A stretch of 64,000 bases of DNA from Macrostomum lignano (taxonomy: Eukaryota): positions 1 to 64,000 of the forward strand of contig NIVC01002847.1 in assembly GCA_002269645.1 (NCBI GenBank), in the 5' to 3' direction. A program made the translations under genes and the position numbers. The notes under the pieces were generated by a model. The model did not search any database. It was not told where the DNA came from and saw nothing but the letters and a program-made list of their open reading frames with translations. Positions 40,484 through 55,569 of this stretch are shown here, piece after piece. The number at the start of each line of letters is the position of its first letter. Position 1 is the stretch's first letter.

Positions 40484-41205
40484 AGTAGAAGGCATGAGGG
40501 GGCTTTTGGGACAAAATTTTTCACATCCTCCATAATCCCATTAAATCCATCCATATTATCCCCGACAGAATCAGAAAAAAAGGGGGGTCGCACTCGCTCA
40601 CAAAACGTCCTCCATAATCCCATTAAATCCATCCATATTATCCCTGACAGAATCAGAGCATAACAGGTGTCCTACTTACTCCGAAAACTTCGAACATAAT
40701 CCCATTAAATCCATCCATATTATCCCTGACAGAATCAGAGCAGGTGTCCACTGATACCTGTTATGCTCACTCTGGACACCTGTTATGCTCACTGACACAG
40801 ACATAATCCACTGACATCCACCCATAGCATCTTCGAAACAATCAGAAAAAAATCTGCATTCTTCTCCCCACATTCAATTCGCAACATGAAACCAGATCCC
40901 AAAGACTTTAAATCATCAGCGCAGGGTCCTTACCCCTTGAAAAAAATAAAAAATTCTCAAAAAAAAGTTTCCAGTTGTCTCTCCAGGTTCCTATTATACT
41001 CAGCCTCATCCATTGTACAAATCCAAGTACCGATGCAAACTAGAATGCAGCGAATACATGAGAAAATATTGGCCCGACGTTGATATCAATGTCCCTAATA
41101 TTAATCAAGCACTTAAATCTCACTGGTTTTATGAGTATGGAGTAACCTATGTAAAAGATTACGACAGCTACTATAACTTTGCAGAAATCATTAAGCAATT
41201 GCGTT
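40484..41205 (+). repeat. Left terminal inverted repeat
   Basis: Reverse complement of ~55333-56115; three 82-bp-spaced internal units. Confidence 0.9.
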
Positions 41206-41207
41206 AA
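40968..41207 (+). CDS. Small TIR-encoded ORF, left paralogue (ATG missing in this assembly)
   Basis: FPVVSPGSYYTQPHPLYKSKYRCKLECSEYMRKYWP...YDSYYNFAEIIKQLR, colinear with the right-TIR ORF; AAAAAAAAG where the right copy has AATAAAAATG. Confidence 0.55.
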   Translation, partial: FPVVSPGSYYTQPHPLYKSKYRCKLECSEYMRKYWPDVDINVPNINQALKSHWFYEYGVTYVKDYDSYYNFAEIIKQLR

Positions 41208-41462
41208 AAAACATACTGAGTTCATTTATTCGCAATTATATTTACATAAAACAGGAGGAAATAAGGAGGAAAGAGCAGACACTGAGTGTGCAGGGCTATC
41301 CGGCTGAGAATTTTCTTCCGCGACGTGCAAGCTTAGTTGCAAGGCTGGAAATGAATAAGGTAGAGAAAGAACAAGATATTGTAGATCCTCGCACAATCCA
41401 AAATCGATATTCTTCGGATCCAGAATCATATTGATTTTCCTCCCGGTCATTTTGTGAACAGC

Positions 41463-41895
41463 ACTTTCCTGATTGTCAGGAATTCCTGTATTGTCAGGAA
41501 TTCCTGTATTGTCAGGAATTGGCACGAGTTTAAAAAAATCCTGGAGATCCAGGAAAGTGTTTAGAAGACTACTATGAGTGGCTTACATTGATAAAATCCT
41601 GGAAAAAAATTTAGTAAAAGACTTTCCTGTATTGTCAGGAATTCCTGTATTGTCAGGAATTGGCACGAGTTTAAACAAAATCCTGGAGATCCAGGAAAGT
41701 GTTTAGAAGACTACTATGAGTAGCTTACATTGATAAAATCCTGGAAAAAATCCAGTAAAAGACTTTCCTGTATTGTCAGGAATTCCTGTATTGTCAGGAA
41801 TTGGCACGAGTTTAAAAAAATCCTGAAAAAATCCTGGAGATCCAGGAAAGTGTTTCGAAGACTACTATGAGTAGCTTACATTGATAAAATCCTGG
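41463..41895. repeat. Three 140-160-bp tandem units containing palindromes TTCCTG-N6-CAGGAA and TCCTGG-AGAT-CCAGGA
   Basis: Unit starts at 41463, 41621, 41762. Confidence 0.9.
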
Positions 41896-42260
41896 AAAAT
41901 GGTTGATAACTAAGAAGTGAATCTTCATCAGCAACAAATGGTCGGCGAAGTTCGTCAAACACCATTTCGGTTCTCATGGCGTAGTTGCGATCCTGGGTCT
42001 CCATGGCCGCTCTTGAACGAATTCGCTGGTTCTCAACTTTTTCATTGAAGAAATTGTGGAGAACTTCTTGAATTCGCTCTGATGCCTGTTCGTCGGCATC
42101 TAATCCTTCAATAAGGCGACCGTGGAGATTTTCTAGGTCGGTCGGGTAGAACGTAATTTTTTGTGAACTAAAAACAAAGATTTAATTAAAATAAGAGATT
42201 TTTCAATTCTTAACACAGGATAGAATTTCAGTAAGTAAAAAATGAATAAACTTACAACAT
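41876..42260 (-). CDS. Putative intron-containing 98-aa viral accessory gene (exons 42260-42256 and 42167-41876)
   Basis: ATG TT|gtaagt ... tttgtttttag|T TCA; 88-nt AT-rich intron; second exon open for 97 codons. Not in the ORF track. Confidence 0.55.
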
Positions 42261-42529
42261 AATGAAATCAGCAGCCACAACGGTGCAGTATTGCGTGACG
42301 AAGAACGTGAGCGAGCAAAATGAGCTGAATTTTCTTGCTTGCTTTAACTAGCTTCCGAGCGATCGATTCCCTACACCCGCTTCCTTCCCTCCAGTTGTCA
42401 AAGCGGAAAGGAATGCACGCGTGGAACAGGGCTGCGCTCCCTCAGCAAATAGCAGTTACCCCACCCCTTTTCAAAATGCAGCTGTTGCGTTTGGCTATGG
42501 CTGAGAATAATAGTTAAGCCCTTCCCGAC

Positions 42530-53127: not shown

Positions 53128-53157
53128 TTCTTATTTTATTTTATTTTTAGTTAAAAA

Positions 53158-54444
53158 ATGAACGACCCACTGACACCAGTTTTCTACAAAATTAACAAGC
53201 CTATTTTGAGTGATGATAGCACAATCAAGGCGACTCAGGTAAGAGTTCCCAGTCAGGAAAATCAGAATGAAACTAATCTTGGTCCTGGCCAAACACTGAC
53301 ATTCACATACAATGGATGTTCGTCTTTGGTTAGTGTGCACAGTCTTAAGAGCGGCTTCCATATGACATTTCAATTCAAGACAAAGGGTGGTGCGGATGCG
53401 GCTCGTGCTAACGTTGACAAGCATGATGCGGATGTGGCTCTGATCAGTAACTTTTGGGCGTACATGTTCAAGGAGTTTAGTGTATCGAATGGGAGCACAG
53501 AGTTGGAGCGAATCGCCAACTTTGGAATTGTCTATGACGCTCATTGTTTGATCGAGAATCCTGATTTTATTCAGTTGGGAAGTGGTGCGGGTTTTATTGC
53601 AGATGAAAAAGAAGGAGATATCAATGACAGTGGCTATAAAAAGAGGAAGAAGAGATACAACTATGCATTGCAAGGTGCAGATGATGCTGCTAAGAACCCA
53701 CAGTATCGGTCTGTTGATGTATTTATACCACTGAGATTCATGAGTGGATTCTGTAATACATTTAATCGACTGACTAGTAACTTTAGCTACACTTTTAAGA
53801 TGACTAGAGATGATCGCAGTAGAGTGTTGTGGACTGGGGCGGACCACACTGGGATGGCTGTGAAGCTAACCGGAATCGAGCTGTATTTGGAAGTCATTGA
53901 GCCAAAGACAGCACTAAAAGCGGATTATCTCAAGGCAATAGAGAAGGACATTGATGTTGCATACACGGCCTACATGTGTCGAGATGAGCGAAACGAAACT
54001 AGAACAAACATCTGCATTAAAGAGGGATCATGCAGCAATCCAAGGTATATCATTATTAATATGAGAAACCCAAATAGCATTATACGCTACATGCATGGAG
54101 ACGTGCGGTCCATTCAGCATGAAATCAGTGATAATCTTTACCCTGCACTGCCACAAAATGGAGATTTCAGTCAGAACAAGATTAGCAAATTTTACAGCGA
54201 GTTGGTCGACTTGGCTGTGAAAGAGAACAATGGAATTGCTATCACTGCTCTTCAATATGGAACTCTATATCCGATGTTTGGCGCTGATGTGTCTGCCAGA
54301 CAAATGCCTACTGATAACAGCTCTGTGAATATCGTGAGTAACATTGAGAGGACTACCGCAACACCCGTGGACCTGTACATTATCTATGCATTTGAGAGGA
54401 AGGTGAAGCTTAACATGATCAGCAATTCATCCAGTAAAGTTTAA
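53158..54444 (+). CDS. Major capsid protein (double jelly-roll, hexon-like), 428 aa
   Basis: Size, beta-rich pattern (LTFTY, VFIPLRFMSGF, PRYIII, NLYP) and position next to the minor capsid gene; fold is inferred. Confidence 0.75.
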   Translation: MNDPLTPVFYKINKPILSDDSTIKATQVRVPSQENQNETNLGPGQTLTFTYNGCSSLVSVHSLKSGFHMTFQFKTKGGADAARANVDKHDADVALISNFWAYMFKEFSVSNGSTELERIANFGIVYDAHCLIENPDFIQLGSGAGFIADEKEGDINDSGYKKRKKRYNYALQGADDAAKNPQYRSVDVFIPLRFMSGFCNTFNRLTSNFSYTFKMTRDDRSRVLWTGADHTGMAVKLTGIELYLEVIEPKTALKADYLKAIEKDIDVAYTAYMCRDERNETRTNICIKEGSCSNPRYIIINMRNPNSIIRYMHGDVRSIQHEISDNLYPALPQNGDFSQNKISKFYSELVDLAVKENNGIAITALQYGTLYPMFGADVSARQMPTDNSSVNIVSNIERTTATPVDLYIIYAFERKVKLNMISNSSSKV

Positions 54445-54464
54445 ATATTTTTTATGTGAAAAAA

Positions 54465-55328
54465 ATGGAAGCGATTGCTGAAAGACTAAATAATATTATT
54501 TCGCACTCCAAGGAGAGCATTCCTATTACAATAACTGGGCGAATAGATGACTCAAACGGGATATTTATTCAAAAATTAGAGCAGGCGATTCGCCTGGATC
54601 CAGGTTCTAATTACCATGTCTATCTTAACGACTTCACTGGTTGGTCAAACGTTCCCAATGTGACGGCAGCAAATAATAAGTTTTATTACAAATGGAAAGG
54701 TGCAGCAGCAGAACCTGTGGTATTCCCTGTTAGCACGCAAAGTGTGGATACCTACAATTACTTTCTAGAAAACGTATTTACTAAAAGAGGCCATTTTGAG
54801 ACACCTGATGCGAGTAAGCCAGATAAAAAATTGTTCCCTGTCAAACTATCCTATGATCTCACTGTAATGAGAGTGGTCATGCAAGTTCACAAAGATGCGG
54901 AGGTTGAGTTTAAAGATGACACTTGGTATAGGGAATTGGGATTCGTGTAGAAAGTTTATAAGGCAGAATCCACAGCGCGGACTGTCACTCAAGCATCGGG
55001 GGCCGTTAGCATGGCCCGGGAAAGTGTACGCGGTTTGTTCTTAGCACCCAATATAGCAGACATTGTAAAGGGTTTGAATATTCTAATCAGAACTAATCTC
55101 AGTCTTGATTGGGTATTTAAGGGAAAGCGAACGAATATTTTGTACAACATCTCCAACTCTGTAGCTGGAGGACAGATGGTGGTAGAGAAACCAAATCCAG
55201 TGAAAAGAGTTGTATTGAGTAATAAGGAGATTCACGAGATTGTGCTACAGTTTGAGACTGAAGATGGGGTGGGTGTTGATTTCAACGGTGAAGAGTTTGT
55301 ATTGACGTTAATCATTGAGAGAATGTGA
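54465..55328 (+). pseudogene. Minor capsid protein (penton-like) with one in-frame TAG at 54948-54950
   Basis: YHVYLNDFTGWSNVPNVTAANNKFYY ... RELGFV* then 20 open codons in frame into the second ORF ending GVDFNGEEFVLTLIIERM. Confidence 0.72.
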
Positions 55329-55332
55329 GAAA

Positions 55333-55569
55333 TCACAATTGCCTAATGATTTCTGCAAAGTTATAGTAGCTATCGTAACCGTTAATGACTACTCCATGTT
55401 TTTCAAACCAGTGTCTTTGGAGAGCTAGATTAATATTAGGGACATTGATATCAACGCCGGGCCAATATTTTCTCATGTACTCGCTGCATTCTAGTTTGCA
55501 TCGGTACTTGCTCTTGTAATTAGGCTCGTGCGCTTTGTAATAAGAACCTGGAGAGACAACTGGAAACAT
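55333..55569 (-). CDS. Small TIR-encoded ORF, right paralogue, 78 aa
   Basis: AAAA-ATG start; conserved against the left copy with many synonymous differences. Confidence 0.65.
   Translation of the reverse strand: MFPVVSPGSYYKAHEPNYKSKYRCKLECSEYMRKYWPGVDINVPNINLALQRHWFEKHGVVINGYDSYYNFAEIIRQL

Follow-up and report, generated by a model that had tools for sequence, protein, structure and literature searches.

The window analysed here is a stretch of 64,000 nucleotides from Macrostomum lignano (contig NIVC01002847.1, assembly GCA_002269645.1). At positions 40484-56115 it contains a Polinton/Maverick of 15,632 bp, with the 6-bp target-site duplication GGCCAT on both sides (40478-40483 and 56116-56121). 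Because GGCCAT flanks both ends, the two copies of the gene that concerns us, an orphan of 78-80 amino acids inside both terminal inverted repeats (TIRs), are part of one insertion. The features of the element are:

40478..40483, left target-site duplication, 6 bp, GGCCAT
40484..41201, plus strand, left terminal inverted repeat, 718 bp, made up of the AGTAG tip, a tandem array of an 82-bp unit, a spacer and the TIR gene
40526-40742, 82-bp tandem array of the left repeat
40965..41207, plus strand, left TIR gene copy, 80 codons, without a start codon at codon 1
40995..41024, plus strand, dimorphic block A of the left copy, codons 11-20
41106..41162, plus strand, dimorphic blocks B-D of the left copy, codons 48-66, over the RNase-T2-like motif
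41208..42529, variable cargo cassette immediately inward of the left repeat, with a 141-bp tandem array and a minus-strand frame
42530..43030, minus strand, PLA2-like gene (PF08398, E 9e-14)
43060..44097, plus strand, rve integrase (PF00665, E 2e-10, above cut-off)
44114..44578, plus strand, adenovirus pX-like core protein gene (PF05829, E 5e-7)
44701..48325, plus strand, protein-primed DNA polymerase (PolB) region in three frames (PF03175, E 2e-11, above cut-off)
48597..49004, plus strand, adenain-type protease (PF00770, E 2e-4, 21.4 bits against a cut-off of 21.3)
50763..51314, minus strand, A32-type packaging ATPase (PF04665, E 1e-5, 25.2 bits against a cut-off of 22.8)
53158..54444, plus strand, likely major capsid protein (PF21738 double jelly roll, E 5e-4, under the curated cut-off)
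54465..55328, plus strand, likely minor capsid (penton) gene, named by position with no Pfam family
55333..55569, minus strand, right TIR gene copy, 78 aa, intact, convergent with the penton-position gene
55336..56115, minus strand, right terminal inverted repeat, 780 bp long, in which the 82-bp unit is repeated 3.6 times
56116..56121, right target-site duplication, 6 bp, GGCCAT

The integrase, PolB, protease, packaging ATPase, repeats with target-site duplication and size all fit a Polinton/Maverick. In the available portions of the literature, the TIRs of vertebrate Polintons/Mavericks range from 46 to 1447 bp (PMC8502044, PMC8097293, 10.1101/2023.08.22.554363). The size range given for Polintons/Mavericks is 13-25 kb. 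On these descriptions the element resembles animal Polintons and adintoviruses in size, TIR length, 6-bp duplication, the integrase, protein-primed polymerase, protease and ATPase genes, the likely capsid genes, and its PLA2 and pX accessory domains. However, the alpha adintovirus PLA2X, as described in the accessible part of Starrett et al., joins a PLA2 domain and a C-terminal pX domain in one protein, whereas here the two domains lie in separate genes on opposite strands. Alpha adintoviruses also have an OTU domain at the PolB N-terminus; the N-terminal PolB frame of the present element has no Pfam match. The polymerase is interrupted in the window copy, and the penton-position gene is broken by a stop that is absent from 24/24 sister stretches. 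Unlike animal Polintons as those sources present them, the window family has a coding gene in both TIRs, marking their usual inner edge, together with shuffled block alleles and a tip-to-interior gradient. We found no description of a TIR-borne gene in an animal Polinton in the available text of the adintovirus and Polinton literature (PMC8502044, PMC8097293, 10.1101/2023.08.22.554363).

Repeat homology ends at the last sense codon shared by the two gene copies (41201 and 55336), which forms the inner end of the repeats. The copies are 78% identical and, as a sequence-only reading of this DNA had observed, identical stretches alternate with replaced blocks; the identical stretches are those conserved across the whole family. 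The codon-aligned gene holds 43 nucleotide differences. Counted by effect, 12 are synonymous and 27 non-synonymous, with just 3 and 2, respectively, falling outside the blocks. The outer TIR had been said to differ by a few bases per hundred, which is right for the terminal 100 bp (3 mismatches) but not for the 150 bp upstream of the gene (8 mismatches plus gaps) or the 82-bp tandem array, with 2.6 copies on the left versus 3.6 on the right. The left copy does lack its ATG: its frame is open over 80 codons, but codon 1 is not a start codon. This lesion is private to it (1 versus 342 exact start-region matches in the genome), the start-less junction has no exact match among the short-read contigs listed, and from residue 2 onward the protein equals that of another copy (G000:C522:230657).

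From 612-620 candidates in the genome we scored at least 150 copies of the TIR gene. The allele analysis used 115 of them, selected because they best match the two alleles in the window and hence a biased sample. They carry 21 combinations of six blocks, each block with two states. Linkage falls off over about 50 bp, mean r2 dropping from 0.64 (10 bp or less) to 0.05 (more than 100 bp; permutation p 0.0005), and the Hudson-Kaplan minimum is 16 recombination events within 237 bp, in agreement with the earlier suggestion that recombination has shaped the gene. No end preference of the block alleles was detected in 43 side-assigned copies (Fisher p 0.19-1.0). The block variants are shared, shuffled alleles present at either end, not fixed left and right paralogues. 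They recur in many other insertions, which supports the earlier proposal that they are older than the window insertion.

Mosaicism is found along the whole element. At like sample size, the minimum number of recombination events per 100 bp is 4.8 in the TIR gene and 2.5-4.2 in the genes for capsid, integrase, ATPase and PLA2; the core genes are bimodal in identity, and the best-matching sister changes along the window element. Since the mosaicism is element-wide, nothing specific to the TIR gene is required. The TIR gene is one of the element's three most dimorphic genes and among its fastest-diverging. The cargo cassette inside the left repeat comes in at least five interchangeable types among sister copies, and the 3′ allele of the TIR gene is linked to cassette A (21/28 versus 5/48, p 1e-8).

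Target-site duplications are matched in 34 of 61 candidate left-right pairs, and differences within and between elements were compared for 27 independent elements whose target sites match. The within/between ratio runs, from the tip to the 3′ third of the gene, 0.24, 0.36, 0.42, 0.48, 0.51 and 0.71. Near-identical ends throughout were seen in 10 of the 27 elements, C522 and C1330 are clean polar cases, and six elements have irregular, non-polar segment patterns. Five further elements with matched duplications are compatible with the gradient: two are near-identical, either as far as the 3′ third or all the way through, two are polar and one is divergent over the whole length. Homogenisation across elements is polar, not patchy.

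These results bear on the proposal of the sequence-only reading, that the left and right copies are paralogues separated long ago, which selection maintains and which TIR recombination within one element homogenises in patches. Two observations favour such paralogues: divergence in the blocks is deep (block A of the window pair has 4.5 synonymous changes over 6.8 sites), and the tie between 3′ alleles and the neighbouring cassette amounts to partial end-linkage. However, no allele is end-specific, the 10 elements just mentioned are near-identical at both ends, and the window pair has identical runs no longer than those of other copy pairs diverged to a similar degree (its longest, 30 nt, is at the 25th percentile). 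We consider this explanation highly improbable.

Recurrence of one unequal left/right pair at independent insertions, which would point to an origin of the inequality before insertion, was not seen among the 61 pairs. Two insertions that were assembled twice each show the same unequal pair, with 0-1 differences between contigs and 65-66 within for C1527/C4261, and 2-3 between and 39-40 within for C622/C27. The mosaic might instead be an assembly artefact, with reads or polishing from other copies mixed into each repeat. The assembly is noisy, with 192 of 577 one-base indels in homopolymers versus 11% background and frame breaks common in the long genes of the element, and the unique start-less left copy may itself be such an error. 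That said, no more than about 0.4-1.2 kb separates the TIR genes from unique flanks, the duplicate contigs repeat the same unequal pair (though reads may be common to both), and the alternative block sequences are present as loose ends in short-read contigs. We find an artefact very unlikely.

The two copies are probably alleles of one gene at the inner TIR end of a high-copy Polinton family, their patchwork derived from frequent recombination between elements and then from tip-first end-copying that often halted before the gene. At least two diverged element lineages would have met in one host and recombined along their full length, and a crossover would have produced a genome with ends from different parents. 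During protein-primed strand-displacement replication these ends would pair in a panhandle, and copying or repair would begin at the tip and proceed inward for a distance that varies. The outcome would be identical ends, half-converted genes or repeats of great length. The product would then integrate and decay.

The tip-to-interior gradient is equally expected from gene conversion between integrated copies, because tracts must end before the unique flanks. The inequality of the ends may date from after insertion: elements would insert with identical ends, and ectopic gene conversion or double crossovers between the many copies integrated in the host germ line would later overwrite the interior. 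Under such events the gradient would be equally polar and the target-site duplications would stay intact. Copy number is high, and C1293 and C5239 have a common right end but different left flanks, a pattern compatible with ectopic exchange or with misjoining. However, linkage decay within about 50 bp would demand very many short exchanges, and purifying selection on common variants, with rare ones near neutral, points to a replicating pool under selection. Furthermore, repeats extend into the penton gene, or the element is palindromic, in 7 of 22 mapped elements, and such forms with matched target sites fit end-copying before insertion. Conversion after insertion is a possible but rather unlikely source of the unequal ends.

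The end-copying that we favour has a counterpart in adenoviruses, whose inverted terminal repeats form panhandles with end repair and are short and non-coding. Like adenovirus, the family would be a linear protein-primed replicon in which paired ends template each other, yielding matched ends and repeat-length changes; unlike adenovirus, its end-copying is deduced from integrated copies alone. In human adenovirus D, hypervariable patches between conserved stretches are swapped by homologous recombination among co-occurring genomes, and the available text describes many types per patch and a known immune pressure (PMC3648800). The Polinton TIR gene, in contrast, has mostly two states per patch, belongs to an endogenous element, is present twice per genome and has no known pressure. 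The terminal repeats of nucleocytoviruses, virophages and PLVs are described as diversity hotspots with variant alleles and adjoining mobile modules (PMC11296320). The accessible sections of that study name helicase and nuclease genes, located in poxvirus TIRs or beside PLV TIRs, whereas the Polinton carries a 78-aa orphan with intragenic mosaicism.

The family bears on the question of whether animal Polintons replicate extrachromosomally as recombining adenovirus-like populations; in the available part of one report, particles of vertebrate Mavericks were not observed (PMC8097293). The polymorphic gene that many of its insertions with intact target sites carry in both repeats makes it a natural marker. 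The gradient, the extended or palindromic repeats and the fine-scale mosaicism are the expected traces of end-pairing and of recombination between co-resident genomes. Left-right repeat divergence is unusable for dating such insertions.

The piN/piS ratio of the TIR gene is 0.42 overall, 0.22 outside the blocks versus 0.53-0.67 inside and 0.83 for rare variants, and no region exceeds 1.0, the level sought for positive selection. These ratios show the signature of purifying selection, with common variants apparently constrained and rare ones near neutral, and they uphold the earlier description of a coding gene under selection. A ratio near 1 or frequent ORF disruption in sister copies had been named as evidence against that description. 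The overall ratio lies below 1; disruption affects about 18 of the first 100 of the 342 start-region matches (16 of the 31 outside the best-match lists, and stops in 2 of the other 69), which is of the same order as decay or noise in the core genes. The intact ORF of 112 of the 115 best-match copies was dropped as evidence of selection because of their ascertainment.

The TIR protein has a weak sequence resemblance to the active-site helices of RNase T2 (best E 0.012 in PDB). RNase T2 proteins were the sole matches at E of 10 or less in three of four PDB sequence searches, for which alleles were picked after the motif had been seen. PF00445 was matched by 10 of 64 alleles (best E 0.0027), with a best score of 17.2 bits, below the curated cut-off of 26 bits. 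The RNase T2 lead received an Atlas score of 0.90, and a second Atlas search without PF00445 gave scores of 0.80-0.81 at most. A profile of all 64 alleles had no PDB match, and HHalign assigned a probability of 3.6% to the comparison with bacterial RNase I.

The PF00445 matches span just profile positions 61-101 of 188, the PDB alignments place query residues 24-67 against the CAS II region, and the CAS I motif with its catalytic His65 equivalent is absent from both. Residues 31-59 are aligned with the stretch from YWP to CAS II in human RNASET2 (3t0o) and Actibind. Across the 115 copies, in the register of one of the PDB alignments, the His113 equivalent is invariant (115/115) and the Lys117 equivalent nearly so (Lys in 112), and the His118 equivalent is present in 26; unlike in RNase T2, the Glu114 position is Trp in 115/115 and the Cys121 equivalent is replaced too. 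The protein also differs in length (78 aa versus about 240) and has no sheet-region match, and no fold match was found. The RNase T2-like segment overlaps the K108-K133 peptide, reported as actin-binding in the available text of two papers (PMC3458558, PMC4341462).

Two structure models of the protein (pLDDT 58.7 and 70.2) have three helices in an order compatible with the RNase T2 helical region. Foldseek searches with these models against PDB and viral structures gave no RNase T2 and no clear match, and a wide VIA search listed no RNase T2 (best Z 3.8); its absence is no evidence for differing folds. The chances that the protein derives from RNase T2 active-site helices seem about even. Most likely it is not an enzyme but a small putative accessory factor of three helices that would act on the host, with the two replaced patches as its interaction surface. 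For now we regard it as an orphan accessory factor of possible RNase T2 origin. Putting the parts together, a Polinton might have captured RNase T2 active-site helices as a catalytically dead decoy in its TIRs, the two-copy locus being diversified by recombination and incomplete end-copying, with most genomes holding two variants under balancing selection imposed by a target in the host, such as an RNA-sensing protein or actin. We consider this joint account unlikely.

Homologues outside this genome were not found by a word-index search with the window protein, nor among longer proteins by one with the 64-allele alignment. A HMMER scan of 1.84 billion representatives returned two matches, both to repetitive proteins and judged spurious, and 0 of 222 pattern matches in viral contigs were confirmed. 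A search for host RNase T2 gave six matches, none with the expected motifs, so that no host donor was found. Three presumed-RNA runs have contigs over the TIR gene, a kind of contig that cannot demonstrate transcription. Genes for actin were found in the host, where they are split by introns.

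The element in the window is a Polinton/Maverick, and the inner end of both its terminal inverted repeats (TIRs) is formed by a small orphan gene, here called the TIR gene.

40484-56115, no strand assigned: Polinton/Maverick of 15,632 bp, both ends flanked by the 6-bp duplication GGCCAT, repeats starting AGTAG
40965-41207, forward strand: left TIR-gene copy in the left repeat, open over 80 codons but lacking a start codon
55333-55569, reverse strand: right TIR-gene copy, an open frame in the right repeat, intact, 78 aa

The sequence-only reading of this DNA was right that each TIR carries a gene of ~78 aa, the right copy being intact and the left open over 80 codons, and that the left copy lacks its ATG within an A-run. 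Genome-wide there is one start-less form against 342 exact start-codon matches; it reflects either a mutation private to this copy or a mistake of assembly in the A-run. Homopolymers hold 192 of the 577 one-base indels of the assembly against a background of 11%, an enrichment of ~3x. Homology between the repeats stops at the last shared sense codon of the gene. The two copies differ at 43 nt, with 27 non-synonymous and 12 synonymous differences, and outside codons 11-20 (block A) and 48-66 (blocks B-D) there are only 3 synonymous and 2 non-synonymous differences; the identical stretches and replaced patches already described are present. The few differences per hundred reported for the outer TIR hold for the terminal 100 bp (3 sites); the 150 bp before the gene have 8 such sites plus gaps.

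Are these copies diverged paralogues, as had been proposed? Genome searches with both window alleles, in which the best 150 of 612 and the best 150 of 620 candidates were scored, gave 136 copies from 138 loci. Merging same-flank copies left 116, including 11 without a recognisable terminus that are not checkable for this, and dropping one early-stop copy left an alignment of 115. Here six two-state blocks are shuffled into 21 combinations. Linkage decays with distance, mean r2 being 0.64 for sites up to 10 bp apart, 0.18 at 26-50 bp and 0.05 past 100 bp (permutation p 0.0005), and the 237 bp need a minimum of 16 recombination events, which bears out the suggestion that recombination shaped the gene. 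In a small sample of 43 copies assigned to a side by the next mapped gene (PLA2 for 13, the penton-position gene for 30), none of the blocks showed a side preference (p 0.19-1.0). The left and right copies are alleles, not paralogues, and fixed left/right paralogues are very improbable. The 3′ alleles are linked to the adjoining cargo cassette (21/28 vs 5/48, p 1e-8); no such linkage was found for block A (p 0.48). Assembly chimeras are also unlikely as a source of the unequal ends: for each of two insertions that were assembled on separate contigs, the contigs agree on its unequal pair, though they may share reads. No unequal pair common to two independent insertions was found among 61 pairs.

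The cargo zone extends 10 bp to ~2 kb directly inside the TIR gene (window 41208-42529; sister elements L139-L178) and holds at least five interchangeable cassette types among the window and sister elements. Some contain tandem arrays; in others there are diverged members of a gene family that appears to be spliced, and some types can lie at either end.

Target-site duplications matched in 29 of 50 candidate end pairs, of which 27 were left once two duplicate assemblies were removed. In these 27 elements mean left-right differences, taken relative to between-element pairs, rise from 0.24 in the terminal 80 bp through 0.36 and 0.42 in the segments before the gene to 0.48, 0.51 and 0.71 in its successive thirds. 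Homogenisation of element ends is polar, from tip to interior. Fewer than three differences were found in every segment of 10 elements, a single inward switch from matched to divergent in another 10 and irregular patterns in 6, while the window's element has at least three in all segments. Its pair resembles two copies drawn from the pool: as many differences are found in 16% of all copy pairs, and its longest run of identity (30 nt) lies at the 25th percentile among pairs with at least 35 differences. The identical stretches are therefore family-wide conservation and not conversion tracts between the element's two ends, and the patchy homogenisation by TIR recombination earlier suggested for this pair is not supported.

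Our best reading of the mosaic, unequal ends, held with some confidence, is recombination between element lineages, followed by tip-inward end copying and then integration. Diverged lineages would recombine to give elements whose two ends come from different parents; protein-primed replication may then copy paired ends inward, starting at the tip and reaching variable distances, and the products would integrate. The paired-end copying step is taken from adenovirus biology. The TIR gene, at the inner repeat edge and beside an exchangeable cassette, would be the part least often re-matched. Conversion among integrated copies, the main rival, predicts the same tip-to-interior gradient and is possible, though clearly less probable. 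Among 22 mapped elements, 7 are palindromic or carry repeats that reach into the penton-position gene. The extended repeats are on contigs C1330, C2034 and C3721; the palindromic elements, with one arm duplicated inverted over kilobases and matched target-site duplications, are on G000:C276, C975, C1584 and C2140 (L155, L156, L173, L151-152).

The portions consulted of earlier work (PMC8502044, PMC8097293, PMC11296320, 10.64898/2026.10.13.758929, 10.1101/2023.08.22.554363) already describe how Polintons are built, and also mosaic genomes and variable terminal regions; in adenovirus D, the shuffling of patches is likewise known (PMC3648800). In the mainly open-access literature covered, we found no animal Polinton with a repeat-borne gene that combines shuffled alleles with a polar gradient of identity; existing element annotations may already include such a gene.

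The claim that the gene is under selection is upheld for purifying selection: piN/piS is 0.42 over the whole gene, 0.22 in the parts outside the blocks, 0.53-0.67 within blocks and 1.0 at codons 38-40. Variants found in only one or two copies are near neutral (0.83), and ~18 of the first 100 of the 342 start-region matches are disrupted. This pattern fits selection in the replicating pool followed by decay after insertion. Positive selection was not shown by piN/piS by region in the 115 copies. Codon 38, in the predicted loop that joins helices 1 and 2, encodes seven amino acids among these copies, and three loci (L189, L216, L224) have a three-residue insertion at codons 38-40.

Other genes of ~20 elements are likewise mosaic, with piN/piS of 0.09-0.42. 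Minimum recombination per 100 bp is 2.5-4.2 in the capsid, integrase, ATPase and PLA2 genes, 0.4-1.3 in the polymerase and protease, and, with a comparable number of sequences, 4.8 in the TIR gene. The closest-matching sister switches along the window's element. At 50400-54900, compared with sister elements, the ATPase, 405-aa gene, major capsid and penton-position gene are either ~99% or 70-85% identical, two classes which show two old lineages recombining across the element. The share of residues in strongly dimorphic windows is 40% for the TIR gene and 40% and 36% for two further orphans; it is 19-20% for the protease and another orphan gene, 14-21% for the major capsid and the first part of the penton-position gene, and 0-8% for the integrase, pX, ATPase, PLA2 and first polymerase frame. 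The TIR gene is thus among the most dimorphic class of the element's genes.

Protein, representative-protein and viral-contig searches found no homologues of the TIR protein outside this genome. Structure prediction, an earlier proposal, was partly informative: two models gave three helices (21-35, ~44-58, ~67-77; mean pLDDT 58.7 and 70.2), but structure searches with them gave no clear match. Several weak signals, not independent of one another, point to RNase T2. PF00445 is matched by 10 of 64 alleles (best E 0.0027), the RNase T2 Atlas score is 0.90, and in three PDB searches, with queries picked after the motif was seen, human RNASET2 and Actibind were the only matches at E<=10 (best E 0.012); a PDB search with a profile of all alleles gave 0 matches. 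The resemblance spans the YWP motif to CAS II. For the catalytic residues as named in the part consulted of PMC3458558, the equivalent of the first His is invariant and that of the Lys nearly so. Every copy has another residue at the Glu position, 26/115 have the second His, and CAS I is unmatched. Membership of RNase T2 was rejected on these differences, and the protein would not be an autonomous enzyme. Descent from RNase T2, judged by this resemblance, has about even odds. An RNASET2 peptide reported as actin-binding in the portion consulted of PMC4341462 overlaps the region resembled, and may serve as a lead.

Over Pfam cut-offs, the window element hosts a PLA2-like gene, an rve integrase, an adenovirus pX-like gene, a protein-primed PolB, an adenain protease and an A32 ATPase; the double-jelly-roll capsid scores under its cut-off. 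The adintovirus-like accessory genes (PMC8502044), together with a genome size of 764 Mb, point to an animal host. The element is partly decayed or mis-called: the stop in its penton-position gene is absent from 24/24 sister stretches. The stop closing the first polymerase frame (45763-46050), followed by a ~285-bp gap, is common to 19/19 sister stretches, therefore this split is a family feature (an intron or two-gene layout) and not decay. Beyond the target-site duplication, inverted repeats of 61-83 bp (I10, I11, I19) lie on both sides (39810-40443 and 56628-57233), which suggests an older element surrounding the insertion, or host repeats that are related and oppositely oriented. MITE-like inverted-repeat clusters with short tandem units occur at 20155-20796 and 38752-39533.
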